The position numbers and the translations under genes are program-made. 64,000 nt of DNA. It comes from Thermoplasmata archaeon. GTDB lineage: Archaea > Thermoplasmatota > Thermoplasmata > Lutacidiplasmatales > UBA184. The notes beneath the pieces are model-generated. The model was not told the origin of the DNA. It saw only the letters and a list, made by a program, of their open reading frames with translations, and did no database searches. Positions 7,354 through 26,394 of the stretch are shown piece after piece (within the stretch, counting starts at the first letter, position 1; each line of letters begins with the position of its first letter). Location: assembly GCA_030038655.1 (NCBI GenBank), contig JASHSP010000113.1, positions 5,420 through 69,419 on the forward strand, given 5' to 3'.

Positions 7354-7436
7354 ACCGGGGGACCCGCGAGCTGCATCGTATCCCCGCGGGCGCTCGCCCA
7401 AGCCTCGGTGGCCGGGGCCTCGAAAAACCGGGCAAC

Positions 7437-7447
7437 GTTCTTATACG
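7437..7447 (+). promoter_or_regulatory. Archaeal TATA box (TTCTTATAC) for the thermopsin-domain surface protein gene
   Basis: An AT-rich TTCTTATACGA sits ~27 nt upstream of the ATG at 7471, consistent with a leaderless mRNA. Confidence 0.4.
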
Positions 7448-7470
7448 AGGGCACATGGTCCCCGGCTCGT

Positions 7471-10400: not shown

Positions 10401-12747
10401 TTCGTACGACGTTTCCATCGCCAACGTGACGGCAACGTACGGCGCGCTCGGGGTCTGGATCGACCCGTCCGCGTTCGTCTACGTCACCGGGACCGTCGTC
10501 AGCCAGGAGGCCGCCGGAGTCATGGCGGAGGACTCGACGGACCTCTGGATCAACGATACCAACGTCTTCGCCGACTCGTTGGGCGTTCTCGAGGAGGACG
10601 GCAGCGAAGCCCGGATCTCCAACACGAGCGCCTCCGATTTCTCGCTGGGGGTCGGCGTGGTCGGGTCGAACGCCAGCTGGGTCAACTCAACCGACGTTTC
10701 CGGCCTCGCGATCGGGGTCGGCATCGAGTTCAGCACGGGGATCCACGTGGACGGCGTCACCGCGACGGGGTCGGGCAGCCCCCCGTCGCCTTGGCTCTAC
10801 CAGTACGTCTGGGGGGTGCCGACGTCCGCCGTCGTGACCTACGAGACGTTCCAGAGCACTGTCTCCGACGTCGTGGCGAGCGGCTACCCGGCCGCGCTCT
10901 ACGACAACTCCTCGAGCGTGCTCGGGGTCCAGTCGGTCAACGCGTCCGGGGGCGACTTCGGGATCGTGTTGAACGGCACCACCGGCAGTGTTTTCGCCGG
11001 AATTCAGGCGTATCAGGACCAGGTCGGCCTCCAGATGAACTGGGCCGTCTACTTCGACTACGAGTACGAGGAGTACGTCTACGCGAACGCCTCCGACGAC
11101 GTCGTCACCGGTAGTTCGTTCGTCGACTGCGTCGGATTCGGTGTCGACATCACTCACGGCGTCGACAACACCGTCTACCTCAACGATTTCGTCGGCGACA
11201 ACGGCGCCACCTCGACCTACAGCGCGGCCCACATCCAGGCGTTCAGCAACTCCGCCTCGAACGAGTTCAACAGTTCGAACGAGGTCGGCAACTACTGGGC
11301 CGACTGGCATTCCTACACGGACGGCGTCCTGAACCCGTACTACCTTTCGAACGGGACGTGGGACTACCACCCTCTCGGTGCGATGGAAGGGGCGTTCTTC
11401 GTCACGTTCTACGCGTCGGGGCTGGCGTCCGGGACCTCCTGGTCGGTCACGCTCGGGAACACGACTCAGAGCTCGGTCGGATCCTGGATCACCTTCGTCG
11501 AGTACCCGGGCACCTACGGGTTCACGGTCGGGGCGGTGCCGGACTACGAGATCACCCCCGCCGCGGGATCCGTCGTGGTGTCGACCGGCCCCGTCGCGCA
11601 GACGATCGAGTTCGCGGCCACCTACCACGTGACCGTCAAGGAGACGGGGCTCGCCGCCTCGACTTCCTGGAGCGCGTTCTTCGGCGGCGTCGAGAAGTCG
11701 ACCTCGGGAACTTCGATCGCCTTCACCGAGACCGCGGGCACCTACTCGTTCCAGATCCCGGGCGTGGGGGACTACACGCCCACCCCGGCCAACGGAACCG
11801 TGACGGTGACGGGCAATTACACGCTCTGGATCGCGTTCTCGTCCCCGACCGTCTACACGGTCTGGGTCAACGAGACCGGGCTATCGGGCGACGTCACGTG
11901 GTCCGCGATCTTCAACGGGGTCGAGGAATCGACCGGCGGCACGTCGCTCGCCTTCTCGGTGCCGGCGGGGACGTACTCCTACCAGATCGGTTCGGTGGCG
12001 GGGTACGCCGCGTCGCCTTCGGCCGGTTCGGTCGGCGTGAGCGGCAACTTCCTCCTGCTCGTGACCTTCTCGTCGACCACGGGGCCGACGTACTCGGTCA
12101 CGATCTCGGAGTCCGGGCTGCCGGGCGATACCGAGTGGTCCGCGATCTTCAACGGGATCGAGGAGTCGACCAGCGGCACGTCCCTCGTGTTCACGGTGGC
12201 CGCCGGAACGTACAACTACCAGATCGTCGGGATCGCGGGCTACACGGTCTCGCCGTCCGGCGGCTCGGTCACCGTCGGCGGGAACTACGCGCTCGCGGTC
12301 GCGTTCTCGACGGTCAAGTACGCGGTCACGGTCTCGGAGACCGGGCTCGCGAGTGGCACCGTCTGGTCGGCGACCGTGAACGGCGTAACGCAGACCTCGT
12401 CGGGGACCGAGATCACGTTCTACGAGCCGAACGGCACCTGGTCCTTCTCGGTCGCGAGCGTGAGCGGCTACTCGCTCACGGGCGGGTCGGGGTCGATCCC
12501 CGTGTCCGGGTCGTCCGCGGGAACGTCGGTCGCGTTCACCCCGTCGAGCTCGCCGTCGTACGTCGGAACGTCCACGTACAACACGGGCTTCGACATCGCT
12601 CTCGCCCTGGCGGTCGTCGCCCTGCTGGTCGCGCTGTTCGCGCTCCTGCGTCGCCCGCGCGCTCCGCCTCCGCCTCCGGCCGCCCAGTGGCAGGAGCCCG
12701 AGGCGGGCGCAGGCGAGGAAACGTCGTCTACGACGGGTACCCATTAG
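7471..12747 (+). CDS. Giant cell-surface glycoprotein: signal peptide, thermopsin-like (peptidase A5) domain, parallel beta-helix region, five ~85-aa Ig-like TGLxxGTxW repeats and a C-terminal TM anchor
   Basis: The ORF track starts at 7408; the ATG at 7471 (MTGLRSVRNRVWLLPIVLVVCALML) follows the TATA box. The N-terminal domain matches thermopsin as recalled (PAPMGIADFGLS, TLQFIDNVWNLSSPG, DDAELVFGGPGGGSN, DYGTDTGETAIGM). The middle shows a repetitive GVxV/NxS beta-helix pattern. The C-terminal repeats (YxVTVxETGLxSGTxWSAxFNGVExSTSGTSxxFTV.AGTYSYQI) are followed by FDIALALAVVALLVALFALL and a charged tail. More than 60 NxS/T sequons are present. Confidence 0.75.
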   Translation: MTGLRSVRNRVWLLPIVLVVCALMLSPAGGLLAARSASSATLAASLSAAASTGGTGSMHLPSLLHSSLPSSPAGPAIAPTLLADASGFNGGLSASPSPPLGARSGGSNAPSGVPAVATDVASSTPGWVASVDQSIADGQVPASAAYLPSLSLLNEHVSTPSQAVSPIVTVSPAPMGIADFGLSANGPYSVYTQGVAGGIQLSGYNATAGTTYETTGAYYWDGLSPNAVVTPWQSGVQLNTVLNNVSYPGSDIGAFWTQNVLDFSGSTLQFIDNVWNLSSPGAAMEYGTIYSGNGVLVPGELYYDYGPTLPLSFPLTINLYNNASIIDGRSALTFGYRVVEGATVYTGVYDTVVFNSQPTVVDPLLTPDYLISGFNLAPDNFLLDDAELVFGGPGGGSNAEISSMSGDLSLAFLNGSAWEPAPSAYDYGTDTGETAIGMAATWSGTNESVSQGPSILYGLWNTTYSVPSGQVPFVGHLDPSYGFAFIGLYGTNTTNLSYAPSAANGTVLTWLPPSIVFNLTVFADGFSELNATFEGAVNAEIDLVSSPGTWNAPLYMNGDVQAAALALDTLGESSAPYEFYNLNVSVNQTFNHVNDYYYPTFDLLWAYGLTTPLAVDNISQGGDAPNGDTYYAPDYNGSGENLPYFGDEIAVWSSPSPFFENLFLPGYLLPAGTDGGGAIALWNDSDAFGYNLTSVDDTFGLWASDSPFTAEVDSVAYLGAVALTLMASAYAFTYNLSAFGFAADVLDEGGLYGDLDQLNATGFSDGVVTYGTNDTGIYQLNATEESVAADLEFGSGLYVYAVNASFESVGVEGLGLNLSSVYDVAIGTSEFDPGVVLEESNNSVVQNVYGNSSEGYGVLLLGDGISTVTNVTAVNDSAGVIVEDSYGPVGVDQVVANDSVGVAIGFNAVLATVTDVNATNGSIGVESYESFDVEVREVSASGFAAQSNIGVDVLVSEAVDVSYVSAEGGSIGVDVSSSYDVSIANVTATYGALGVWIDPSAFVYVTGTVVSQEAAGVMAEDSTDLWINDTNVFADSLGVLEEDGSEARISNTSASDFSLGVGVVGSNASWVNSTDVSGLAIGVGIEFSTGIHVDGVTATGSGSPPSPWLYQYVWGVPTSAVVTYETFQSTVSDVVASGYPAALYDNSSSVLGVQSVNASGGDFGIVLNGTTGSVFAGIQAYQDQVGLQMNWAVYFDYEYEEYVYANASDDVVTGSSFVDCVGFGVDITHGVDNTVYLNDFVGDNGATSTYSAAHIQAFSNSASNEFNSSNEVGNYWADWHSYTDGVLNPYYLSNGTWDYHPLGAMEGAFFVTFYASGLASGTSWSVTLGNTTQSSVGSWITFVEYPGTYGFTVGAVPDYEITPAAGSVVVSTGPVAQTIEFAATYHVTVKETGLAASTSWSAFFGGVEKSTSGTSIAFTETAGTYSFQIPGVGDYTPTPANGTVTVTGNYTLWIAFSSPTVYTVWVNETGLSGDVTWSAIFNGVEESTGGTSLAFSVPAGTYSYQIGSVAGYAASPSAGSVGVSGNFLLLVTFSSTTGPTYSVTISESGLPGDTEWSAIFNGIEESTSGTSLVFTVAAGTYNYQIVGIAGYTVSPSGGSVTVGGNYALAVAFSTVKYAVTVSETGLASGTVWSATVNGVTQTSSGTEITFYEPNGTWSFSVASVSGYSLTGGSGSIPVSGSSAGTSVAFTPSSSPSYVGTSTYNTGFDIALALAVVALLVALFALLRRPRAPPPPPAAQWQEPEAGAGEETSSTTGTH
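11392..12560 (+). repeat. Five tandem in-frame ~255-bp coding repeats (Ig-like TGLxxGTxW module) inside the thermopsin-domain surface protein gene
   Basis: Nucleotide-level repetition is visible (..gagaccgggct..tggtccgcgatcttcaacggg.tcgaggaatcgacc.gcggcacgtc.ctcg..). It gives near-identical peptide repeats: ETGLSGDVTWSAIFNGVEESTGGTSLAF / ESGLPGDTEWSAIFNGIEESTSGTSLVF. Confidence 0.7.
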
Positions 12748-13008
12748 ATCCTCGACAGAACCCCTTCTCGCACCCCGGGTCCGCGAGGACCCGGGGGCGG
12801 TCGTTCTTCTGGCATCCTCGTACAGGTCGCGCCACAGTTCTCTCCGGCAGCGACCGACGCCTTAGGTCTCTCGGTCCCGCCCGGGAAGAACGCGGAGGCC
12901 CCCGGGGGCGGGTACGGCTCGCGTTGTTCCCTCCCTCCCAGCGCCTTCCCTTCCCCCCGTTACAAGTTATAGTGGGAAACCGTGCCGGCACCGACACCGT
13001 AAGCGAGG

Positions 13009-14202
13009 ATGGTCGCCCGAACCCGCCCCCCCACGTTTCGAGTCCTGGCCGCCTGGGAGCCTTCGTCGCCGCCGCATCGTCCCGCTCCCAGGCCGACCTC
13101 CGCGGCTCTCCCCCGAGTGGTCCTGTCGACCGGCCCCGTGACCCGTCTGACGCTGCGCATGGAACCGACCGCCCTCACTCTCTACCGGAAGGACGGATCC
13201 CTGTCGCTGCCCGGGCTCGAGTTCTCCGCCGCGATCGCGCTCCCTCCGATGGACCTCGCGCCACCTCCGGCGCCGCCTCCGGCCCCCGCGGAGACCTCTC
13301 GCGGGCCGATCGTACTCGAGCCACCCGACGCGCCGCCGCATCCTACTGAGTCCACTGGCTCTCGCGCCGAGGTGCCGGTCCTCGAGAGTGCCATCCCGGA
13401 CACAACGCCAGAGTATCTCGAACCGCTGACCGTCATGGCGGACGAGCCTCCGCCGGAAAGTCCGGCGCCGGAGAAGCAGGCGGGTTCGCCGCTCGTCGCG
13501 GCGGAGCTTCCGGCACCGCCCTCGGCGCCGCCCGACGCCGGGGGCCCTCCGACGATCCCGACGCCGGGACTTTACGACCTACCGGCCCTCCTTGCGCGAA
13601 TCCTCTCCGTCTCGGCCGGCCTGCGCGCCGCGGGCGAGATGCGACTCGGGGTGCGGGAGGCTCCGTCCGCAGCGCCTCCGTCACCTTCCGCGGCTCCCGG
13701 GCCGGAGCTCGCGACCTCGGTCGGGGCGTCGAATCCGGCGCCCGTTCCTCCCGAGGCACCGGCCACGGAAGAGTCGCCGGCCCCTCCCGCACCGATACTG
13801 GCCGCGCTTCCGGTCTTCCAGTGGCGGGACTGGCACCGTCCGGCGTCCCATGCCCACGACGAGTCCCGCGCCGAACCGGCTCCTCAGGCGGAGGTCGTGA
13901 GCTATTCCCGCTCGACGGCCCGCAGGGAACCTACCGTGCCGGCGACGACCCCGTATCCCCCGGCCGCGAGCACGTGTCGGTGCCCCCAATGCTATCGCGC
14001 GGATCCCCCTCCGCCGCTCCGGGGGGTCCTCGCCCGTCGACGGCACCTGCGATTCGAGTACTCGTCGGCGATCTCGAAACCCCATCCGCCGCCGGAGGAA
14101 TCCGACGAGCCCGGCGGCCTGGTCCCGCTGGCACGGCCGGCGCGGTACCGGTGGCGAATGTACCGGGACCGTCTGGAGGCCGATTCGAAAGACGACGGCT
14201 GA
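13009..14202 (+). CDS. Hypothetical Pro/Ala/Glu-rich low-complexity protein (possibly disordered, cell-envelope associated); gene status uncertain
   Basis: 397-aa ORF in the only sizeable gap of the island, with an AT-rich AAGTTATAG ~35 nt upstream of its GTG. Composition is PAPPPAPAETS/PEYLEP with a CxCPxC near the C-terminus. High GC could also generate this ORF by chance. Confidence 0.3.
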   Translation: MVARTRPPTFRVLAAWEPSSPPHRPAPRPTSAALPRVVLSTGPVTRLTLRMEPTALTLYRKDGSLSLPGLEFSAAIALPPMDLAPPPAPPPAPAETSRGPIVLEPPDAPPHPTESTGSRAEVPVLESAIPDTTPEYLEPLTVMADEPPPESPAPEKQAGSPLVAAELPAPPSAPPDAGGPPTIPTPGLYDLPALLARILSVSAGLRAAGEMRLGVREAPSAAPPSPSAAPGPELATSVGASNPAPVPPEAPATEESPAPPAPILAALPVFQWRDWHRPASHAHDESRAEPAPQAEVVSYSRSTARREPTVPATTPYPPAASTCRCPQCYRADPPPPLRGVLARRRHLRFEYSSAISKPHPPPEESDEPGGLVPLARPARYRWRMYRDRLEADSKDDG

Positions 14203-14488: not shown

Positions 14489-14525
14489 CCCTCCGCGCTC
14501 GACCTTCCCCCCGGGGGTCCGATTG

Positions 14526-15092
14526 ATGAAGCGGAACACGACCGCGCGCGGGACGTTCTATCTCGTCTTGGCGATCGCCACGTTCGCCGTGGTCGCGGGG
14601 TTCGCCCTCGGTTCTTTCACGTTCGGGAGCTTCGGTTTCATTCCCAAGCAGACGGGCGCCTCCGGCGTCGCCCCGGGTGCGCCGGCGGGAGTCCAGTTCC
14701 CCCTCGCGGAGGCGACGTTCGTGACGCCGAGCTCGACTCCGGCGACGGGGGCTTGCACCACCACCAACCTCGGCACGAACCTCACGCCCAATCACCTCAC
14801 GAGCGGCGCGGCCGTCGGGATCTGCCTCAACGCGTTCTCGGGGGGCTACCTGACCGGCGACACGATGTGGATCCTGGAGGTGCTGTGGAACACGAGCGCG
14901 ACCGTCTCGACGCTGTTCAACGTGAGCATCTTCGAGTCGACCACCCCGGCCACGGACAGCATCCTCGCGACCGCCTGGGTCGAGACCTCGGCTACGATCA
15001 CGGCCAACGAGACCGCGATTTTCGCGGTCGACCTGAGCCAGAGCACGATCTCCTCGGTCAACACGTTCAACGTGCTCGTCACCGAGGTCTGA
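14526..15092 (+). CDS. Small secreted/anchored protein with an archaeal pilin-like or SipW-type N-terminal signal (MKRNTTARG|TFYLVLAIATFAVVAGFALG)
   Basis: 188 aa (the ORF track starts at a TTG at 14523). A basic n-region and RG are followed by a long hydrophobic segment. The body is a Thr/Ser-rich beta-rich domain with several NxS/T sequons. No homologue recognised. Confidence 0.55.
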   Translation: MKRNTTARGTFYLVLAIATFAVVAGFALGSFTFGSFGFIPKQTGASGVAPGAPAGVQFPLAEATFVTPSSTPATGACTTTNLGTNLTPNHLTSGAAVGICLNAFSGGYLTGDTMWILEVLWNTSATVSTLFNVSIFESTTPATDSILATAWVETSATITANETAIFAVDLSQSTISSVNTFNVLVTEV

Positions 15093-15975: not shown

Positions 15976-16515
15976 TCAAGCCGAGGGCAGCAGCAGCGGG
16001 TCGCCGCAGCCGGACGACTGCTCGGTTCCCGTGATCGTGACGACGATCACCGTCGAAGCGCCCCGGCATGCGTTCCCGGCGGTCGGAGAGAGCCCGATCA
16101 CGCCCTGGTAGGAGAACGTTCCGCCGGAAGCGAGCTCGCGGGGGGGAGAATTGGGAAGGTTGTCGGTGTAGGTGAACAAGGGGCACGCGTGCGGCTGGCC
16201 GATGCTGATGGACTGGGAAAGGGTCACGGCCACGCTTCCGACGTTCGCCAGGACGGCGTTGATCGTGCACGAGGTCCCGGGAGCAAGGACGTCGGCCGTC
16301 GCGGTGAGCGTGGACGTCGTGAGGCTCAACTGGCAGTGCACGTACGCGGCGTTCCCGACCGTGCTCGAGGGGTTCTTCCACTCGATCTGAAGGGTCGGGC
16401 ACTTCGAGTCGTCATGCCCCTGGTTGCACCCGGACCCCCCACCCCCGCCGCAGGCGAACGCCACCCCACCGGAAGCGGCAATGACGACGACCACCAGGGC
16501 CAGCAACTGTTTCAC
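15976..16515 (-). CDS. Small secreted Cys-containing protein (signal peptide MKQLLALVVVVIAASGGVAFACGGG, possible lipobox), last gene of the SipW-like operon
   Basis: 179 aa with an N-terminal signal peptide, a Gly-rich linker and a beta-rich body with 8 Cys. It is co-directional with and immediately downstream of the TasA-like genes. Confidence 0.55.
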   Translation of the reverse strand: MKQLLALVVVVIAASGGVAFACGGGGGSGCNQGHDDSKCPTLQIEWKNPSSTVGNAAYVHCQLSLTTSTLTATADVLAPGTSCTINAVLANVGSVAVTLSQSISIGQPHACPLFTYTDNLPNSPPRELASGGTFSYQGVIGLSPTAGNACRGASTVIVVTITGTEQSSGCGDPLLLPSA

Positions 16516-16641
16516 ACGATCATCCTCTCACAGTCCGGAAGACGCTCCGTACGCGAACGAGCCCCACGCCGGGCGAATGGTGGGTCGGGGCCCCCGTACC
16601 GTCCGCGCCGGCCCCTCGGTGCTCGCTGCCTGCGGACAGGC

Positions 16642-17202
16642 CTACGTCCCGGCCGACCCGGTCAGCGTCACCACGAAGGTGCAGTTCTCGCCCGCGCCCA
16701 GGTTGCTCGCGCTCGGCAGCAAATGGATGAACCCGGCCCACTGAATCGATCCCGTCGCCGGCACGACGTGCGTCTCGGCGCTCGTTTGGCCGCCCTCGCC
16801 GATCGTGACCGCCGGAGAGAAGAAATTGTCCCCGAACACCAGCACGCCACAGAGAGCACCCGACACGCTCGTGACCTGTTCCGAGACGGTCGCCGGGATC
16901 GACCCGAGGTTCGTGAGGGTGTCCCCGTAGCTGCAAATGTCGCCGGGAAGCAGGGTGTCGGCGGTCAGATAGAGGGTGTCGTCCGGCAAGTGGGTCGCCG
17001 GCCCGAGCGATGCGAAACAGACGTCGTTCGGCTCGAATCCGCCGTAGGCCGGGTCCGGGCCCCATACAAGGGGTCCCAGGGTCCCGGCCCGGGCGCCGCC
17101 GTCGACGTACGCCGCAGTCGTGAAGGCGGCGAAGCCGGTGCCGACGGTGGCCAGCACGGCCACCACGACCAACCCGGTCGTCGCCGCCTTCGTTAGGCGC
17201 AT
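16642..17202 (-). CDS. TasA/camelysin-like secreted protein with SipW-cognate-type signal peptide (paralogue 1)
   Basis: The N-terminus MRLTKAATTGLVVVAVLATVGTGFAAFTTAAYVDGGARAGTLGPL resembles the B. subtilis TasA/camelysin N-terminus (..GGGTWAAFND..ATFASGTLDL) and the TIGR04088 SipW-cognate signal class. It is about 185 aa and ends TLTGSAGT like its paralogue. Confidence 0.65.
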   Translation of the reverse strand: MRLTKAATTGLVVVAVLATVGTGFAAFTTAAYVDGGARAGTLGPLVWGPDPAYGGFEPNDVCFASLGPATHLPDDTLYLTADTLLPGDICSYGDTLTNLGSIPATVSEQVTSVSGALCGVLVFGDNFFSPAVTIGEGGQTSAETHVVPATGSIQWAGFIHLLPSASNLGAGENCTFVVTLTGSAGT

Positions 17203-17259
17203 GGTACCCTCACCGGCCGTTGGGCTCGCTGGGTCCGATCCGGTTCCTAACCGATCCGT

Positions 17260-17811
17260 TCAGGTCCCCGCGGATGCGGAGAACGTCAGGACGATGTTGC
17301 AGAATACACCCTGGTCGGCGTTCCCGAGACCGCCGCCGAGGCTCTCGGTGACCGTGTACTGCTGGTACGAGTAGCCGCCGATGGTCACGTACCCGTGCGT
17401 GACGCCGTACGACTCGTAGCCGAACCAGCTGTCGTAGGTGTACGTCACGTAGCATCCGGCCCCGCTGTCCTTCGTCGACGTGATCTCGACCGCGGCCGGG
17501 ATGGACCCTCCGTTGTTGAGGTCCGCGCTGAACGTGCACGAGTCACCCGGGGCGAGGTTGCCCGCGGTGAAGTTCAGCGTGTCGCTCGTGTTCAACGTCG
17601 TCGTGATGAAGTTCGTGCAGACGTCGAAGCTCTCGGTGCCCACGGGTGTGGCCGTGTTGCTCCAATAGAGCGGCCCGAGCGTTCCCGCCTGCGCTTGGGC
17701 GTCGATGTACGCACTCGTCGTAAAGCTCGCAAACCCGATCCCGCCGACCGCGATCGCAGCGACCACGGCGACAAGACCCAACATCCACCGCTTTCCCATA
17801 CTGCCCAACAC
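17260..17811 (-). CDS. TasA/camelysin-like secreted protein with SipW-cognate-type signal peptide (paralogue 2)
   Basis: The N-terminus MLGSMGKRWMLGLVAVVAAIAVGGIGFASFTTSAYIDAQAQAGTLGPLYW carries the same GxGFAxFTTxAY..AGTLGPL motif as the neighbouring gene. It ends TFSASAGT. Confidence 0.65.
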   Translation of the reverse strand: MLGSMGKRWMLGLVAVVAAIAVGGIGFASFTTSAYIDAQAQAGTLGPLYWSNTATPVGTESFDVCTNFITTTLNTSDTLNFTAGNLAPGDSCTFSADLNNGGSIPAAVEITSTKDSGAGCYVTYTYDSWFGYESYGVTHGYVTIGGYSYQQYTVTESLGGGLGNADQGVFCNIVLTFSASAGT

Positions 17812-17945
17812 TCCGGGTACCAGTACCCGAGCAGGAAAGGGGTTGGGGAGTTATACGGCAACAGAAGATGTTTCGAATGTTCTCAGTACCATTCGCTGGA
17901 ATTGTACATACGAAACGCCTCGCGAGCGTCGCCGCGCCACTGCGG

Positions 17946-19481
17946 TCACCTCGATCTCGAAGCCGGCCCCGGCGCGGGTCCGCCGCGCCGGGCGCCCCGC
18001 GTCAAGAGCTGCGAGAGCTCGGTCACCTCGAGGTAGGCGGCTGCAAGATCGTTCTCCCGCACCAGCGCCATCGTTCGGCTGATCCGGGCCCGCGCCTCGA
18101 ATGAGGTCTGGCGGTCGAGTTGCAGGGTTTCCATCCGGGCGACCTCGCGCTTCAGAAGGCGCGTTACGGCCAGCGATCCCGGGGAGAGCCCGGCGAGGTC
18201 GTCGAATCCGGTCGGGCCCTCCGGCGGGGGGGCCGCGGTGGGCGGACGGGCCGGGGCGGATGTTCCCGACGCGGCCATCGAGGGTCGGCCCCCCGGCGCC
18301 CCGCCGGGCGTCGCGACCGGTCGCACGGCGTTCGAAGGGGCGCTGGAAGGGACCGTCCGAACCGGACCGGCGGGAGTGGCTCCCGGGGAAGAGTCCCCGG
18401 TGGCGGCGGGTGCCGGCAGCGGGGTCACCGGTGGATTGCTCACACCGGTCGGCCTCGGAGAACCCCCGCTCGGTCCCCCGGGATACCGGAACGTGTACGC
18501 CCACGTTCCGTCCAGCACCACGAAATCGAATCGGCTTGCGTCGCTGCCGCCCGGGCGAAGGATCGGCTTGCCGAGAGTGTCGGCGACCTTCACCAGGTCG
18601 GCGAATCGGTCGACCCGGATCAGCGACGCCGAGCCGACGACGGTCTCGGTCTCGGCGATCGCCTCCTCGTACGGCGCGATCATCTGCTCGAGCGGCGGGA
18701 CCGCCTCGTCCTCCGGCCGGCGGGTCGCGAACCAGAGGCTGCCTCCCAGTCCGCCGAGGGAGAGCGCGAGGGCCGTCGACGGCACGAGCGCGGTCGTCGC
18801 ACCGGTGCTGGTGCCGGCCGGGGGTGCGACGATCGCCCCGGAGCTCGAGTAGTTGAGCCCGGTCGGCGTGATGAGCGACCCCGCGAACGTCAGGTTCAGG
18901 ATCGGCGCCTCCGCGAACGGTTGGCGAATCCCCGCCACCGCGATCGAGCCGGTGATGTGCGGCTCGAGCGAGAGGACGAACTCCGTGCCCGCGAAGCCGA
19001 CCTGGCGGTTGATCGACTGGGCCAGGGCGACGACGGCGGAGACGTTCACGTCGTAGTGGCTGGGGAGGGCGAGGAAGGTCGCGTCGGTCAACGTCGTCTG
19101 GTTGGTCGACGCAAACAGCGGCTTCGACCAGACGGTCGTGGACAGGTCGACGCCGAGCGACTCGTTGACCGTGATGGACGCCGGACGATCGGCGACCAGG
19201 GCGTAGATCAGGCTGACGTTGATCCAGTTCGTGATCGGCGTGAACAGCGTGATGTTGCCGCCGTAGACCTCGGTGGAGTTGTTGTAGAGCACGCTCGCGT
19301 TGACGGCCGCGGCGAACGAGTTGGCGCCCGTCTGCGAGAACGTTGCGACCGTGGTGCCCGCCGCGTTCGAACCGGCCGGATGGACCTGGGCGTCCAAGTA
19401 GTAGGCCGCCCAGACGGTCGTGAGAACGAAGACGACCGCCAAGGCGGACGCGACGGTCCGAACCCGCGCCGAGACCCTCAC
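17946..19481 (-). CDS. Larger SipW-cognate-type substrate / TapA-like accessory protein: signal anchor, N-glycosylated domain, Pro/Thr/Ser-rich linker and C-terminal coiled coil
   Basis: The GTG start at 19479-19481 overlaps the peptidase gene stop (GTGA). The N-terminus VSARVRTVASALAVVFVLTTVWAAYYLDAQ has the TxWAAF/YxD motif of TasA/TapA N-termini. The body carries many NxS/T sequons. The tail is PTGVSNPPVTPLPAPAATGDSSPGATPAG followed by the helical LKREVARMETLQLDRQTSFEARARISRTMALVRENDLAAAYLEVTELSQLL. The ORF track's extension to 19727 overlaps the upstream gene and is rejected. Confidence 0.6.
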   Translation of the reverse strand: MRVSARVRTVASALAVVFVLTTVWAAYYLDAQVHPAGSNAAGTTVATFSQTGANSFAAAVNASVLYNNSTEVYGGNITLFTPITNWINVSLIYALVADRPASITVNESLGVDLSTTVWSKPLFASTNQTTLTDATFLALPSHYDVNVSAVVALAQSINRQVGFAGTEFVLSLEPHITGSIAVAGIRQPFAEAPILNLTFAGSLITPTGLNYSSSGAIVAPPAGTSTGATTALVPSTALALSLGGLGGSLWFATRRPEDEAVPPLEQMIAPYEEAIAETETVVGSASLIRVDRFADLVKVADTLGKPILRPGGSDASRFDFVVLDGTWAYTFRYPGGPSGGSPRPTGVSNPPVTPLPAPAATGDSSPGATPAGPVRTVPSSAPSNAVRPVATPGGAPGGRPSMAASGTSAPARPPTAAPPPEGPTGFDDLAGLSPGSLAVTRLLKREVARMETLQLDRQTSFEARARISRTMALVRENDLAAAYLEVTELSQLLTRGARRGGPAPGPASRSR

Positions 19482-20836
19482 TTGCGCTCTCCTCGCCAGA
19501 CGACCGGAACCAGGATCGCGAGGAACACCACCGACGCGGCGAACAAGCGGTCCAGGATCAGGTAGCCCACGTACGGCACGTAGAAGACGACCGCCCCCAA
19601 GACATTCGCGTACGCGACCGTGCACGGGTCTTCCACGGGGTTGGCGTCGCCCTTCGTCTGGTAGACCCAGTCCGGTCCGCCGGAGACGATCCGGATCACC
19701 CGATGGACGGTCGGCGACGGCAGGCAATGGACGTCGAACGCGATGATGGTGCCGACCTTGATGTCGGCCGGTGCGACGTGCTCCACGACCACGAGTTCGC
19801 CCCGATGGAACGTCGGAACCATGCTGCCCGTCGCGATCGCGAGCACCGGCGACGGGGTGCCGAGGACGACGGGCAGGCCGTAGACAAACGAGATCGCGAC
19901 GACTCCGACGACGGCCGCGCTGACGAACGTTCCCCGGAGAGCGGCGCGCTCGCGGGCGCGACTACGGAACCGGAATCGGCGCGGGCCGATGCGCTCGCCC
20001 AGGTAGCGGAGTTTCTGCAGCCGGGGTTCCTCGAGCCCGAGCCCGACGATGACCAGGACCACGGCGTAGGCGACCAGCGCCGCGGCGAACTCGGTCTCCC
20101 ACCCCGGGAACCGGGCGGCGTAGGGCAGGAGCGTCGTCAGCGCCGAAACTCCGGCGGCCAGCGTGATGGGGCCCACCAGGCTCCAGCGGGTCTTGTACAG
20201 GTAGAAGGCCAGCACGATCCCCGCGACGAACGAAAGGATCGTCGTGGAGAAGAGGAACTGCACGGCGGCCGTCGGCCCGAGGAGCGGGAGGGCTCGGAGA
20301 TCGGTCGCGTTGAGGGCGTACATCCCGGCAGCGGCCAGCATGGCCGCCCGGAGCGGAAGGACCCGCGTGAGGGTACGGAACACGTACCCGAAGAACAGCC
20401 CGACCTCGGCGAGCGCGAGAACGGGGGTGCTCAGCAGCAGCAGCCCGAACGGGATGGGGGGGGTCGGCACGAGCTTGCCGAACCCGAACAAAAATCCCGG
20501 GTCGATCGACACGGCGAGGTAGAGCAGGATGAGCAGGGCGGCGAACGTCATGCTCGCCGACAGCGGCTCGCGAAGCGCGAACCCAAAATCGCGAAGGGGG
20601 CGCCGCTCCAGCTTCGCGGCGAGGAGGAGGAGGCCGACGAGCGCGGCGCCCAGGGCGAACAGACCGAGGTAGCTGCCGTAGCCGGTGAGCCACCGGACGA
20701 GGAAGCCGTAGACCTGCGTCGTCAGGATCGCGGCGGCGGCGATCCCAAGCGCCATCGCGAGGCTCTGGCGGCGGGATAGTCCTCCCGCGGGTGGCGATGC
20801 GAGGGCCGTGCGGGGCACGGTGGCGGCCACGCTCAC
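19478..20836 (-). CDS. Signal peptidase I (S26, archaeal Sec11/SipW-type) fused to a ~300-aa N-terminal polytopic (about 8-TM) membrane domain
   Basis: The C-terminal ~130 aa hold the catalytic Ser box (IATGSMVPTFHRGELVVVEHV), a His box (VHRVIRI) and the GDN-type box (KGDANPVEDP), followed by a C-terminal TM helix. The N-terminal domain has repeated hydrophobic helices with a weak Abi/CPBP-like layout but no intact EExxxR/FxxxH motifs. Confidence 0.7.
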   Translation of the reverse strand: MSVAATVPRTALASPPAGGLSRRQSLAMALGIAAAAILTTQVYGFLVRWLTGYGSYLGLFALGAALVGLLLLAAKLERRPLRDFGFALREPLSASMTFAALLILLYLAVSIDPGFLFGFGKLVPTPPIPFGLLLLSTPVLALAEVGLFFGYVFRTLTRVLPLRAAMLAAAGMYALNATDLRALPLLGPTAAVQFLFSTTILSFVAGIVLAFYLYKTRWSLVGPITLAAGVSALTTLLPYAARFPGWETEFAAALVAYAVVLVIVGLGLEEPRLQKLRYLGERIGPRRFRFRSRARERAALRGTFVSAAVVGVVAISFVYGLPVVLGTPSPVLAIATGSMVPTFHRGELVVVEHVAPADIKVGTIIAFDVHCLPSPTVHRVIRIVSGGPDWVYQTKGDANPVEDPCTVAYANVLGAVVFYVPYVGYLILDRLFAASVVFLAILVPVVWRGERK

Positions 20837-20837
20837 C

Positions 20838-21539
20838 TCACTTTCGGGATCGGGCGCGGGCCGAGCGGCGGATGTTGACCGATGCCGGCATGACGGCGAG
20901 ATCCCCCCGGGCCCCCGAATCTAGGCGCGGCCCCACGACGGGGGCTTGCCCGTCACGCAACCACCAGCGCTCGATCGAGTCGATCGGAAGTCCCGGGTCG
21001 GGGAACCGCTCCCCCGGGGAGACGAGTCCCCCGGACCGTCCGATGTGCGGAAGGGCGATCTCCGCGAGGGCGATCCTCGAGACCGTGCGCCCATGCGAGG
21101 AACTTCGTGGGCCCTGTCCCAGGGGAGCACCCCCGAGCGAACGGTACAGCTCACCCAGGATCGATTCGAACTCGGCGGTCTTGGCCAGCAACCGCTCGAT
21201 GGAATCCAGCACTGCCTCGGCGCGAACGGTGAGGCGGAACCCGCCCGGCGTCGGTCGCACCAGGTCGAAGGCGATGCCGAAGTTGAGGTACCGCCGGAAG
21301 GAGGAGGGGTTCAGGTTGGCCAGCCCGATGATCCGGGTCTTTTTCGGCTCCTGCCGAACCGCCCGGAGGAAGTCACGGAGGACTTCGACCCTCGTGCGGT
21401 AGCCCGCCTCCTCGCGCTGCGTCGACAGCCCCCCCCTACGCCCCGGACCCGCGCCGAGGCGGCGCGGGCTGCTGCGTGCCCTGGGACCCCCCCCAAAGTA
21501 TATGAGGGCTTGGTCAAGCCAAGACCCGACTTCGCGCAC
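20838..21539 (-). CDS. Putative winged-helix transcriptional regulator, first gene of the SipW-like operon
   Basis: 233 aa with a candidate wHTH (TRIIGLANLNPSSFRRYLNFGIAFDLVRPTPGGFRLTV). Its stop lies 2 nt from the peptidase start. The true start may be internal; function is inferred only from fold-like pattern and position. Confidence 0.35.
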   Translation of the reverse strand: MREVGSWLDQALIYFGGGPRARSSPRRLGAGPGRRGGLSTQREEAGYRTRVEVLRDFLRAVRQEPKKTRIIGLANLNPSSFRRYLNFGIAFDLVRPTPGGFRLTVRAEAVLDSIERLLAKTAEFESILGELYRSLGGAPLGQGPRSSSHGRTVSRIALAEIALPHIGRSGGLVSPGERFPDPGLPIDSIERWWLRDGQAPVVGPRLDSGARGDLAVMPASVNIRRSARARSRK

Positions 21540-21631: not shown

Positions 21632-22372
21632 TCAGACCGGGATCGAGTAGCGGACGATCGGGCTGTCGATGTACTCGAGCACCCGGTCCTTGCCGAGCTC
21701 GCCGGCGGTCCGGAAGGCGAGGGGAAGCAACCGGTCCCGATCGGCCGCACTCAGTGCGGGGATCTCCGTCAGCACGGTAGCGACCGGCGCGACGTGCCGG
21801 TCGAAGGACGCGAGTACCGCGGCAAAGTTCGGGAAGGCAAGTTGGAACAGTTGCAGCTGCAGCTCCACGCCGGAAGGTATTGGTAAGGCGAGGTAGCTCT
21901 TCATCTCGTAGAACCGGTCGCGTCCGTTCCAGTAGTCGGGCTGGGCATAGAATCCGGCGCGCTCGTTGATCAGGACCAGGCGGCTCTTCGGTCGAAGCAG
22001 CCCCATCACCTCGCTCCGCCGGAACGCTTGCAGCACCCCCGCCACCTGGGCCAGCTGCTTATCCCGGTCCGCGGGGACAAGGGACAGGTCCGCGTCCGCC
22101 AGCTCGCCGTCGAGCGTTTCCGCGGCGAGCCGGTTCATCGCGGCGGCGGTCGGCCGGCGGGACGCGCGGAACTCGTGGCTGTACCGGGAGAGCACGCTGT
22201 CGATGGCCCGTCCGACGGCGAGACCGAGCTCGTCGCGCTCGGTCACCGGGCGGGGGTGCACGGCCTGGACGATCTCGTACGCCGCAAGCGTCCGGACGGT
22301 CGTCATCGTCGCGCCCCGCGAACGCCATCCTCCGGAAGCAAAGGCCGTGACGGCTCGACGCCGGGACAACAC
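21632..22372 (-). CDS. Hypothetical protein with PD-(D/E)xK nuclease-like motif
   Basis: ..RLVLINERAGFYAQPDYWNGRDRFYEMKSY.. fits the E..D..ExK core of restriction-endonuclease-fold proteins. A probable start is at MTTVRTLAAYEI (about 22306). No other recognisable domain. Confidence 0.4.
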   Translation of the reverse strand: MLSRRRAVTAFASGGWRSRGATMTTVRTLAAYEIVQAVHPRPVTERDELGLAVGRAIDSVLSRYSHEFRASRRPTAAAMNRLAAETLDGELADADLSLVPADRDKQLAQVAGVLQAFRRSEVMGLLRPKSRLVLINERAGFYAQPDYWNGRDRFYEMKSYLALPIPSGVELQLQLFQLAFPNFAAVLASFDRHVAPVATVLTEIPALSAADRDRLLPLAFRTAGELGKDRVLEYIDSPIVRYSIPV

Positions 22373-23511: not shown

Positions 23512-26394
23512 TTACGCCGTGCCCGGCTCCCCGAGCGGGCGGGCGACCGCGGTACCGGCCCGGGCGCGCGAGACCGCGGCCACGTCGAGCGCGTTCAGGA
23601 GCGGCGCACCGGAGCTCTTCGCGACGAACGTCACCGGCTCGACGAGCGCGGCGCCCTTCACGGCCACGTGGTGCGGTGCTCCGGGCGACGTGTACCCCAC
23701 CACCGGGCCCACGAGGACCGGGTAGCTGCCGTTTCCGAGGTGGAAGACGATCGACGTGGACGTGGAGTTCTTGACCACGCCGGAGATCGTCACGTTCCAA
23801 ACCGTGCCCGACGGAAGACCGGTCTCGGTGAAGATCACCGCGTAGGTCCAGGCGTACGCCAGCGCCATCGCCAGGTTCTTCGTCTCCACGGCCAGCGAGC
23901 CCGTGAGCGGGACCGTCTTGCCGCCCAGCTTCGCCGTGATAAGGCGGGCTCCGTGCGCCGCGATGGAGTACGCGTAGTTGCCGGGCGTCAGGTTCAGGAC
24001 GACCAGCATGGTGGACGTGGAGCAGCGCTGCCAAGACTCGAGCGCGACGCACCAGGCGGACCCGGTCGGGAGCTGCGATTCCTTGAACGTCAGCGTATAG
24101 GTCTTGGCGGTGAGGAACGTGAAGCTCACGACCACCGACGTGCCGGTGACGTTGACGGTCCCAGCCGGCGGGACCCCCGAGACCCGCTGGCCCGACGGCC
24201 CCGCGAGCAGGTAGGAGTATGACCCGTTGGAGACGAAAAACGGAACGGCGGTGAGGTCCGAGACGACCGGGAGTCCATCCAGGACCACCGTCCAGGTCGT
24301 GTTGGCCGGCAGGCCGGTCTGCCGGAACGTCACGGAGAGGGTCTGCGTGTTGCGAAGCACCGAAACCGTGCCGGTGGCCATGTCGGCGACGTACGCGACG
24401 GAGTTCGCCGAATCGTAGTCCGCGGCCTCGGGATTGTTGCCGACGGGGATCGTCGACGCCACGGAGTTCGTGGCGTCCGCGATCACGGTGGTCGTGTTCG
24501 ACTCGAAGTTCGCGACCAGAATATCCGCGGCCAGCCGGCCCTGGTACGTCAGCGAGACCGGGTCGGACCCTACGTCGACGGTCGCGGTGACCTTGTCCGT
24601 GAGGTCGGAGATTACGCTCACGTTGTCCGAGCCCGAGTTCGCGACGAAGATCTCCCCCCGTCCGCTGTCGTAGGCCAGGGCGGCGGGCGCGGTGCCCGTG
24701 TGAACGGTGGCGACCACGACGTCCACCACGTCCAGGATCACGCTCAGGTTGTTCGAGCCGGCGTTCGCGACGAACGTCTCGTTGACCCCGCTGTCGTAGA
24801 CGATCGCGTCCGGGTCGACACCCACGGGTACCGAGGCGCCGATGGTGCCGGACGTGAGGTTGTACACGGTGACGTTGTTCGACTGCGAGTTCGCGACGAG
24901 CAGCGCGTTGCGCGTCGGGTCGAAGGCGAGACCCGCGGGACCGAAGCCCACGGGGATGCTCTGGATTACCTTGCCGGTCGTATCGGAGATGACACTGAGG
25001 TTGTTCGAGCCGAGGTTGGCGACGTACATCCGCCCGAGCTCGCTGTCGTAAACCATGCTGACGGGATCGGTGCCGACCCGGACAGTGGACACGATCGAGT
25101 TGCTCGCAGCGGAGAGGATGTCCACCGTGTCGGACAGGCTGTCCGCCACGAACTGCTGACCGGTCCCGCTGTCGTAGGCGACGGCGTCGGGGGTCGCCGC
25201 GAGTGCGACCGTCCCGACCACCGTGCTCGTAAGGCCGTCCAGGACGGAGACGTTGTCCGTTCCGGAGTTCGTCACGTACAGGCGGTCGGTGGTGGAGTCG
25301 AACACGACGCCCGCGGGGTCCCCCCCCACGTCCGCGTGCGCTACGACCGTGTTGTAGACGTCCGAGATGATGCTGAGGTTGTCGGTGAACGAGTTGGCGA
25401 CCACGACCTCCTTGTTCGCGGGGTCGTAGGCGAGAGCATCCGGCCCGGTCCCGACCGCCACGGAGGCGACGACCTTCCCGGACGTGTCCGAGACGATGCT
25501 CACGTTGCCCGAGAAGTAGTTCGCCACGAACACCTCCTTCTTCTGGGTGTCGTAAGCGAGCGCGACCGGTTCGATGCCCACCGGAACCGCGGCGACCACC
25601 TTGTCGGTCGTGACGGAGATCCCGAGGATGCTGTTCGACCCTTCGTCCGCGACCCACACCACGCGCTTGGCCGCGTCGTAGACGAGCGCCACCGGCTTCG
25701 AGCCCACCGCGATGGACTTCAGGACGCTGCTGTTGTTGCCGTCCCTCAGGACGCTCACGTTGTCGGAGCCCGAGTTGGCGACGAAGATCTCGCTCTTCCC
25801 AGGATCGTATGCCAGCGCAACCGGGGAGGCGCCGACCGTGACGTTCTTCAGGACCGTGTCGTTCACGTCGGCGATGACACTCACGTTGCCCGTGGGGGCG
25901 GTGCCGTTCTCGTTCGCCACGAACGTCTCCTTCTTTCCGCTGTCGTAGGCCACCGCGACGGTGCCGTTCCAGAGTGGGACGTCGGCGACGACCGCGTCGG
26001 ACGTTCCCGAGATCACCGTGACGTTGTTCGCCTTCGAGTCGGCAACGAAGATCTGCTTGAGCACGGGGTCATACGACACCCCCACCGGCCCGTAGGCGTT
26101 GACCGCCAGGAAGTTGCCCGGCTGGAGCGTGTCGTTCGGGAGAACAAGGGTCTCGCTGACCGTGGGCACCGAGACCAACGGGTGGACCTCCGCGGGAGCC
26201 CGGCCGCCCGTCGTCGTTCCCTGCGGCTCGGTCCCGGGGACCGGTGCCCCACGGAGCGACGTGGCCGAAGGGGCCAGGACTGCGCCGACGATGCCCCCGG
26301 TGGTCAGCATCAGGGCGGCCACGGCTGCGGCGAAGAGCAGCACCGGCCAGTTCGGAGAATGTCCCGCGCCCGCTGGCCTACTTTCCGTCTTCAT
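23512..26394 (-). CDS. Surface glycoprotein with N-terminal TM anchor, ~13 YVTN-family beta-propeller repeats and C-terminal Ig-like TGLPxGTxW repeats
   Basis: The N-terminus MKTESRPAGAGHSPNWPVLLFAAAVAALMLTTGGIVGAVL is a TM/signal anchor. Repeating ~40-aa units follow (VGxxPxALAYDxxKxExFVANxGSDNVSVIxD, TIGR02276-type). The tail has ~90-aa repeats (TFRQTGLPANTTWTVVLDG.., TFKESQLPTGSAWCVAL.., IFTETGLPSGTVWNVTISG..). Dense NxS/T sequons throughout. Confidence 0.75.
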   Translation of the reverse strand: MKTESRPAGAGHSPNWPVLLFAAAVAALMLTTGGIVGAVLAPSATSLRGAPVPGTEPQGTTTGGRAPAEVHPLVSVPTVSETLVLPNDTLQPGNFLAVNAYGPVGVSYDPVLKQIFVADSKANNVTVISGTSDAVVADVPLWNGTVAVAYDSGKKETFVANENGTAPTGNVSVIADVNDTVLKNVTVGASPVALAYDPGKSEIFVANSGSDNVSVLRDGNNSSVLKSIAVGSKPVALVYDAAKRVVWVADEGSNSILGISVTTDKVVAAVPVGIEPVALAYDTQKKEVFVANYFSGNVSIVSDTSGKVVASVAVGTGPDALAYDPANKEVVVANSFTDNLSIISDVYNTVVAHADVGGDPAGVVFDSTTDRLYVTNSGTDNVSVLDGLTSTVVGTVALAATPDAVAYDSGTGQQFVADSLSDTVDILSAASNSIVSTVRVGTDPVSMVYDSELGRMYVANLGSNNLSVISDTTGKVIQSIPVGFGPAGLAFDPTRNALLVANSQSNNVTVYNLTSGTIGASVPVGVDPDAIVYDSGVNETFVANAGSNNLSVILDVVDVVVATVHTGTAPAALAYDSGRGEIFVANSGSDNVSVISDLTDKVTATVDVGSDPVSLTYQGRLAADILVANFESNTTTVIADATNSVASTIPVGNNPEAADYDSANSVAYVADMATGTVSVLRNTQTLSVTFRQTGLPANTTWTVVLDGLPVVSDLTAVPFFVSNGSYSYLLAGPSGQRVSGVPPAGTVNVTGTSVVVSFTFLTAKTYTLTFKESQLPTGSAWCVALESWQRCSTSTMLVVLNLTPGNYAYSIAAHGARLITAKLGGKTVPLTGSLAVETKNLAMALAYAWTYAVIFTETGLPSGTVWNVTISGVVKNSTSTSIVFHLGNGSYPVLVGPVVGYTSPGAPHHVAVKGAALVEPVTFVAKSSGAPLLNALDVAAVSRARAGTAVARPLGEPGTA

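Follow-up and report, generated by a model that had tools for sequence, protein, structure and literature searches.

We analyzed a stretch of 64,000 nucleotides (nt) from contig JASHSP010000113.1 of a Thermoplasmata archaeon (hereafter, the window) and focused on a gene cluster at positions 15976-21539. An earlier note, made from the letters of this DNA, had described five genes there and interpreted them as an extracellular fibre locus. The list of open reading frames (ORFs) contains six, all co-directional on the minus strand. In the direction of transcription they encode a winged-helix regulator (20838-21539), a fusion of a CPBP-like domain and a signal peptidase I with ten transmembrane (TM) helices in all (19478-20836), a DUF5305 membrane protein (17946-19481), and three small secreted proteins, p183 (17260-17799), p186 (16642-17202) and p179 (15976-16515). 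Homology and synteny support the core of the earlier interpretation, and the function is predicted from them. The cluster probably specifies a self-contained extracellular fibre system of the TasA superfamily, closest to AbpX, a reading to which we assign a probability of roughly 0.7 from sequence comparisons and structural models.

The regulator ORF encodes 233 amino acids (aa), and its true start is possibly further downstream. The product matches Pfam HTH_45 at residues 47-118 (E-value (E) 5.5e-9), in agreement with its first reading as a winged helix-turn-helix protein, and also NCBIfam Sso10a_fam (E 1.6e-7, under the model cut-off). The peptidase fusion has 452 aa, and the DUF5305 protein has 511 aa when read from a GTG start within a maximal ORF of 593 aa. 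For p183, the maximal ORF (17260-17811) encodes 183 aa, and the orthologs use the ATG at 17799, which yields a protein of ~179 aa. The other two small proteins have 186 aa (p186) and 179 aa (p179). Gaps or overlaps of 2-4 nt were once described for the whole cluster, but tight packing is confined to the first three genes. There, the end of the regulator lies 1 nt from the peptidase start, and the peptidase stop codon overlaps the GTG start of the DUF5305 gene. The remaining gaps down the cluster are 134-146, 57 and 126 nt long. The first of these, a spacer at 17800-17945 (minus strand), has the lowest G+C of the locus (0.56, versus ~0.70 locally) and contains the TATA-like elements TTTCGTATGTACAATT and CCGTATAACT. 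Judging from this composition, the spacer may hold an internal archaeal promoter, from which the pilin genes would be expressed separately from the genes for the regulator, the peptidase and DUF5305. A scan for bacterial-type promoters and terminators, a scan type that does not apply to archaea, gave nothing above shuffled sequences.

A scan of one genome per species recovered 14 related loci, all in Thermoplasmata metagenome-assembled genomes (MAGs), many of them from soil surveys. The closest relatives of p183 likewise all come from MAGs named 'Thermoplasmata archaeon', as expected from the Thermoplasmatota-like host first proposed. The order regulator, peptidase, DUF5305 and subunits 1, 2 and 3 (p183, p186 and p179) is kept in 12 of the 14 loci, so the arrangement is not due to chance, and the synteny persists even where the most divergent genes share only ~27-40% protein identity. 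The peptidase is present in the cluster in 13 of the 14, which bears out the proposed co-occurrence of the small proteins with a dedicated SipW-type peptidase. A regulator ortholog lies immediately upstream of the peptidase gene in 11 related loci, and p186 orthologs occupy the same position as here. Loci L010 and L011 (about 9400-13050) carry a rearranged, divergent version in which two pilin genes are followed by the peptidase and DUF5305 genes, with no adjacent regulator. Some lineages may carry more than one such system. A more distant metagenomic locus retains the core of pilin, CPBP-peptidase and DUF5305. The genes flanking the cluster are common only to the three nearest genomes, and we therefore take the six genes as the unit.

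Homology and fold of the small secreted proteins

All N-terminal strings quoted in the earlier note were found verbatim. The two ~185-aa proteins are paralogs, as it had claimed (p183 and p186 share 38% identity, E 1e-24). What had been listed separately as a small Cys-containing secreted protein, p179, is a third member of the same family (hhalign probability 99.2%, E 3e-19 against the pilin family). The proposed assignment of these proteins to TIGR04088 and PF12389 did not hold up. With PF12389, p183 reached only E 0.82 (9.9 bits, under the curated threshold), and p186 and p179 gave no match. No pilin of the window matched the TasA model NF046066, and none of four isolated N-termini matched TIGR04088 (cut-off 19 bits) at E<=10. 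The control, Bacillus subtilis TasA, reached 38 bits with TIGR04088 and 514 bits with the TasA model.

Because direct Pfam and NCBIfam scans of the pilins yielded no usable match, homology was established through profiles. A profile of 37 sequences had as its best Protein Data Bank (PDB) sequence the AbpX of Pyrodictium abyssi, at a marginal E of 0.0025. The profile was then widened by an exhaustive search of a representative set of 1.84 billion proteins, which found 658 cluster representatives. With 124 sequences, the profile matched AbpX at E 4.2e-12 (50 bits) over mature AbpX residues 2-138. The alignment begins at the donor strand, where W2 of mature AbpX stands opposite the conserved Phe of the family. 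Among the 124 family members, PF12389 matches 10, TIGR04088 matches 8 (weakly, best E 1.2e-3) and NF046066 matches 4.

The AlphaFold2 pilin monomer model (mean predicted local distance difference test score, pLDDT, 83.5) has nine strands and a jelly-roll or beta-sandwich core that resembles solved subunits of the TasA superfamily. In the Foldseek comparison that the earlier note had suggested, the pilin model matched AbpA (7ueg) and the TasA fibre (8aur), both with probability 1.0. Lower matches were to chaperone-usher pilins, the Sulfolobus thread and cannulae. The scores are moderate. Profile and model together support placing the small proteins in the TasA superfamily (at fold level TasA, AbpX, AbpA, the thread, CanX and Tafi), closest to AbpX, and the claim of TasA-like secreted subunits is borne out by this route.

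All three paralogs share the signal-anchor end GG[IV][GA][FY]A. No twin-arginine motif was found in the pilin N-termini (MGKRWML.., MRLTKAA.. and VKQLLAL..), and export by Sec is therefore predicted. After the signal, p183 and p186 read x-F-T-T-S/A-A-Y-I/V-..-A-G-T-L-G-P-L, and the N-terminus of p186 is GTGFA|AFTTAAYVDGGARAGTLGPL. Hydrophobic residues of this putative donor strand alternate at positions 2, 4, 6, 8, 10 and 12 and align with W2-I12 of AbpX, within a conserved N-terminal segment of 11-13 residues. The aromatic residue at mature position 2 (Phe) is kept, as in AbpX. Four Cys are conserved in the pilin family, which suggests disulfides.

The signal of p179 ends in GGVAFA and is followed by CGGGGGSGCNQGHDDSKC in place of FTTSAYIxxxAxA, with the rest of the fold retained. 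The Gly/Ser/Cys-rich linker that replaces the donor strand is conserved in the p179 orthologs. Having a groove but lacking a strand, such a subunit could stand only at one end of a strand-complemented polymer, and we interpret p179 as probably a groove-only cap or tip subunit. FimH and PapG are such strandless groove subunits, found at one end of chaperone-usher pili. We rejected VAFA-C of p179 as a lipobox: the orthologs carry Trp there, and the residues at -3 to -1 are non-canonical. Two p179 orthologs are longer (450-466 aa; L014 9676-10425 and L004 12105-12665) and carry extra C-terminal domains, in which a Pfam scan detected no significant domain. This extension is homologous (~36-37% identity) to the C-terminal repeat region (~280 aa) of a 960-aa YNCE beta-propeller surface protein encoded at 23512-26394 (minus strand) of the window. 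The two apparently share a surface domain that lacks annotation, one that would fit an adhesive or surface-interaction module.

The peptidase fusion and the DUF5305 protein

Residues 304-439 of the peptidase match the archaeal signal peptidase I model TIGR02228 (E 4e-26). The match to NF046067 (SipW) has an E of 2.3e-14, short of the equivalog cut-off, and a search with the family profile finds human SEC11A (7p2p_A; E 1.5e-22). The earlier note had named a peptidase gene without a catalytic Ser or His as a reason to give up its reading. In an alignment of 20 homologs, S338 (in GSM), H378 (in VHRV) and D397 (in KGDAN) are invariant, and the gene stands as a dedicated, fused signal peptidase I. 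From hydropathy and the positive-inside rule we derived a topology of 8+1+1 TM helices. An eight-TM CPBP/Rce1-like domain (residues ~25-270) is followed by a cytoplasmic loop with 12 Lys/Arg, TM9, the external catalytic domain and TM10, and the Sec11/SipW-type signal peptidase I domain spans residues ~302-449. All 101 homologs that we found are fused forms of ~450 aa.

The 511-aa protein belongs to Pfam DUF5305 (PF17231; 32.9 bits, cut-off 29), a domain carried by nearly all of its 70 homologs. Its AlphaFold2 model (pLDDT 80) has a TM helix at residues 5-33, strands at 44-218 and a second TM helix at 232-253, followed by a cytoplasmic alpha/beta region (264-332), a disordered Pro/Ala/Gly linker (340-425) and a three-helix bundle (427-500). 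The protein has 10 N-glycosylation sequons (N-x-S/T), every one of them between residues 61 and 212 and so inside the predicted beta-sandwich ectodomain (~34-225). The best fold matches of this ectodomain are LEA-2-like sandwiches (3but, 1xo8 and 8b7d, the last being TMEM106B). The modelled architecture agrees with the published description of TafG, or 'SPase I accessory', proteins. Both TapA and eukaryotic SPC22/23 are absent from the top 50 Foldseek matches, and the case for a role as peptidase accessory accordingly comes from gene linkage and published fusions, not from fold. On that co-occurrence and those fusions, by analogy, we propose that the DUF5305 protein is a partner of the signal peptidase. 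The first TM helix ends in TTVWA-AYY, in which W24, A25 and Y27 are nearly invariant among the 70 homologs. This W-A-x-Y echoes the F-A-x-F cleavage context of the pilins, as either a cleavage site or a docking motif. The N-terminus had been grouped with those of the pilins, a likeness that reduces to aromatic-A-x-aromatic; the shared 'DAQ' occurs in this genome only.

For each of these two membrane proteins, the evidence bears on a second reading. The eight-TM half of the peptidase could be an active intramembrane protease that performs another processing step, such as degradation of the signal peptide or trimming of the pilin ends. Processing of exported peptides and of sorting signals is a known activity of CPBP proteases. 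Among the full-length homologs, roughly one in three passes the Rce1-like PF02517 threshold at residues ~130-225 (best E 2e-10; full-length homologs at ~50% identity carry it) and keeps E-x-x-F-R-G, as in EE..FRG of homolog P0142. However, motif 1 (EExxFRG) is degenerate in the window copy and its closest clade, which have AEVGLFFG or AQVGLFFG without the second Glu and the Arg. The window protein has no PF02517 match at E<=1. The His motifs FxxxH and HxxxN are absent from all 20 aligned homologs, in which no His of the TM domain is conserved. With motif 1 degenerate and both His motifs gone, the N-terminal half is probably a catalytically dead CPBP-fold domain, and we consider an active protease very unlikely. 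The 511-aa protein, for its part, had been described as a TapA-sized, TapA-like anchor with a coiled-coil tail. As such it would be a secreted substrate, cleaved by the peptidase of the cluster, that nucleates or anchors the fibre by strand donation. Its TTVWA-AYY does resemble the GFA-AF site of the pilins and satisfies the rule of small residues at -3 and -1, with the near-invariant W24, A25 and Y27 lying just there. The empty groove at one fibre end would also need a strand donor, for which we found no other candidate. The C-terminal helices (427-500) of the supposed tail are present, but the tail is predicted to be cytoplasmic, and the model shows a continuous helix at 5-33, a second TM helix and a large cytoplasmic part. 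TapA, in contrast, is a protein of ~250 aa with one N-terminal signal. Beyond TM1 of the 511-aa protein, no amphipathic strand is conserved, TapA does not appear among the top Foldseek matches, and the published work assigns DUF5305 (TafG) to the peptidase, with which it is sometimes fused (PMC11821415; bioRxiv 10.64898/2026.01.04.697558). A TapA-like protein is thus quite unlikely, and we retain the reading as a DUF5305 protein with two TM helices, whose ectodomain is LEA-2-like and whose tail is cytoplasmic.

Proposed fibre assembly and genomic surroundings

The fibre itself also has to be weighed against a simpler reading, in which the three small proteins stay monomeric, as beta-sandwich proteins that are secreted or sit at the surface (as adhesins, envelope components or camelysin-like factors) and have only a dedicated leader peptidase in common. 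Several findings leave room for this. No single protein of the window attains a curated TasA-family model, the N-terminal strand is unstructured in the pilin monomer model, and the pilin beta-sandwich also resembles many non-fibre Ig-like domains. Throughout the close family, Thr or Ser occupies position 4 of the donor strand, versus an acidic residue in AbpX, where it binds calcium, and in TasA. Asp and Glu make up 7.7-8.7% of the pilins (mature pI 4.05), versus ~15% in AbpX homologs. Calcium-driven assembly is doubtful for these two reasons, and the assembly chemistry may, from the sequences, differ from that of AbpX. No membrane anchor for a fibre was identified at the locus, and all carriers of the predicted fibre genes are uncultured MAGs. 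On the other side, the best matches in sequence and structure, namely AbpX, AbpA, the thread and TasA, have without exception been proven to be donor-strand fibres. The N-terminal segment with its alternating hydrophobics aligns with the AbpX donor strand, and one paralog has specifically lost this segment and is conserved without it, the pattern expected of an end subunit. Neither HExxH nor another protease motif was found in the small proteins. We judge the monomeric reading unlikely and prefer the donor-strand fibre.

In the fibre that we propose, the winged-helix protein would control transcription, with the pilin genes possibly transcribed from their own promoter in the AT-richer spacer. 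The three pre-pilins would be exported by Sec, and the dedicated signal peptidase I, of the endoplasmic reticulum (ER)/archaeal type and with conserved catalytic residues, would cleave after the Ala of the GG[IV][GA][FY]-A motif. Both this site and the specificity are predicted by analogy with SipW and TasA, and with TafD and TafA, for which the dependence has been proven genetically. The peptidase, carried on an eight-TM CPBP-like scaffold that has lost its catalytic residues, would work with the translationally coupled DUF5305 protein. Cleavage would free the amphipathic strand x-F-T-T-S-A-Y-I..., which would insert into the groove of the next subunit. Homology and fold point to polymerization by such donor-strand complementation, with no chaperone or usher. 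p183, the candidate major subunit, and p186 would form the shaft, and p179 would cap one end or form the tip. The fibre likely serves in cell-cell or cell-surface attachment and in matrix formation in soil.

A bolder idea concerns the membrane proteins. The CPBP-like pseudoprotease, the Sec11-type domain and DUF5305 could form one membrane machine, the archaeal equivalent of the multi-subunit signal peptidase complex of eukaryotes. Beyond cutting, it would grip the pre-pilin anchors through the aromatic-Ala-x-aromatic motif that DUF5305 TM1 also carries and would couple cleavage to ordered donor-strand assembly. The same machine would supply the assembly platform and the cell anchor that chaperone-free TasA-type fibres are missing, with the cytoplasmic tail of DUF5305 as its link to the cell interior. 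We regard this as speculative and, taken as a whole, rather unlikely.

The earlier note had placed the locus inside a cell-surface glycoprotein island. Large secreted proteins are indeed encoded nearby, namely a 1779-aa thermopsin and NosD protein and YNCE-type propellers of 960 and 1577 aa, but genes for an aconitase, a DUF169 protein and a methyltransferase are interspersed among them. The 1779-aa ORF (7408-12747, plus strand) joins a thermopsin acid-protease domain (E 1e-55) to NosD/right-handed beta-helix repeats and presumably encodes a secreted protease or surface protein. A 189-aa ORF (14523-15092, plus strand) begins with a hydrophobic segment, MMKRNTTARGTFYLVLAIATFAVVAG..., that may be a class III (type IV pilin-like) signal. 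Neither Pfam nor NCBIfam gave a match, and we rejected the ORF as a member of the pilin family (hhalign probability 0.9%). A 246-aa ORF (21632-22372, minus strand), immediately upstream of the regulator, has no Pfam match. These two ORFs and the methyltransferase and DUF169 genes are conserved only in the three closest genomes and were rejected as members of the module; on that ground the 246-aa ORF, too, probably lies outside it.

Relation to known systems

We found no description of a TasA/AbpX-type fibre system in Thermoplasmata in the literature. In the literature covered, the only surface filaments reported for Thermoplasmatales are type IV pili and archaella, and TasA is unmentioned in the accessible part of that 2025 report (PMC12448462). 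The locus was first taken for a kind of system not described before, a claim that does not stand: a dedicated signal peptidase I is already combined with DUF5305, several paralogous pilins, a regulator and a tip protein in the haloarchaeal Tafi loci (2025; PMC11821415, PMC12337348) and in AbpX loci (bioRxiv 10.64898/2026.01.04.697558). Clusters of signal peptidase I, DUF5305 and small pilin-like genes have been described in haloarchaea, Thermococcus, Pyrococcus and Archaeoglobus (PMC11821415, PMC12337348). TasA homologs were noted earlier in Euryarchaeota-derived lineages, including Methanomassiliicoccales (PMC9245690), and AbpX/TasA homologs have been mapped across archaeal phyla (PMC12518558). 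The present locus widens the range of TasA/AbpX-type donor-strand fibres, and of the peptidase module dedicated to them, to soil Thermoplasmata that have not been cultured. It lends support to the idea that building matrix fibres by strand complementation, with no chaperone, is an ancient strategy that different domains share. The conserved strandless paralog leads to a testable prediction on fibre polarity and capping, and it may help the field to recognize that the eight additional TM helices of this peptidase are a degenerate CPBP/Rce1-like domain.

As in B. subtilis, with its tapA-sipW-tasA operon, a dedicated ER-type signal peptidase adjoins the fibre substrates. The cleavage contexts are alike (GGGTWA|AFND in TasA, GGIGFA|SFTT here), and TasA also forms a donor-strand jelly-roll fibre. 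Donor-strand complementation has been resolved structurally for AbpA of Pyrobaculum calidifontis (PMC9245690; PDB 7ueg) and likewise for TasA. The pilins are only 11-14% identical to AbpA, however, and the AbpA locus has no dedicated peptidase and includes the TapA-like AbpB, which is absent here.

The Tafi loci of Haloarcula hispanica and Natrinema (TafA-G; PMC11821415, PMC12337348) are closer in gene content, with a regulator (TafB), a dedicated peptidase (TafD), DUF5305 (TafG), jelly-roll pilin paralogs, a tip protein and strand donation. Genetic work has shown that TafA processing and the formation of fibres depend on TafD (PMC11821415). Unlike the pilins of this locus, those of Tafi use twin-arginine (Tat) signals. 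TafD spans the membrane four times and carries an additional C-terminal domain, whereas the peptidase here has ten TM helices and an N-terminal CPBP-like domain. An anchor of the TafF type (a TM helix and a jelly-roll) was not found in this locus.

The closest parallel is AbpX, known from P. abyssi, with homologs in Thermoproteota, Bacillota and Chloroflexota (bioRxiv 10.64898/2026.01.04.697558; PMC12518558; PDB 9sj2, 9rhp). AbpX loci comprise a major subunit, AbpX-like minor subunits, a predicted end or tip protein, a ten-TM signal peptidase I, DUF5305 and occasionally a transcription factor (bioRxiv 10.64898/2026.01.04.697558, January 2026). The composition of our locus is the same, including the adjacent ten-TM peptidase and DUF5305, and the two systems share the aromatic residue at mature position 2 and a profile match (E 4.2e-12) that includes the donor strand, the mature pI here being ~4.05. 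They differ in host, which here belongs to another phylum, as one of the soil Thermoplasmata, a group that the preprint does not name for AbpX. They also differ in the pilins, which here escape PF12389 and TIGR04088 as single sequences, have four conserved Cys, carry Thr or Ser versus an acidic residue at position 4, and contain 8% Asp and Glu versus ~15%. The preprint gives ten TM helices for the signal peptidase and does not mention a CPBP-like origin of the extra helices. New details that this locus brings to the comparison are the CPBP-like scaffold of the peptidase, a paralog that has no donor strand, and a donor strand that lacks the acidic residue.

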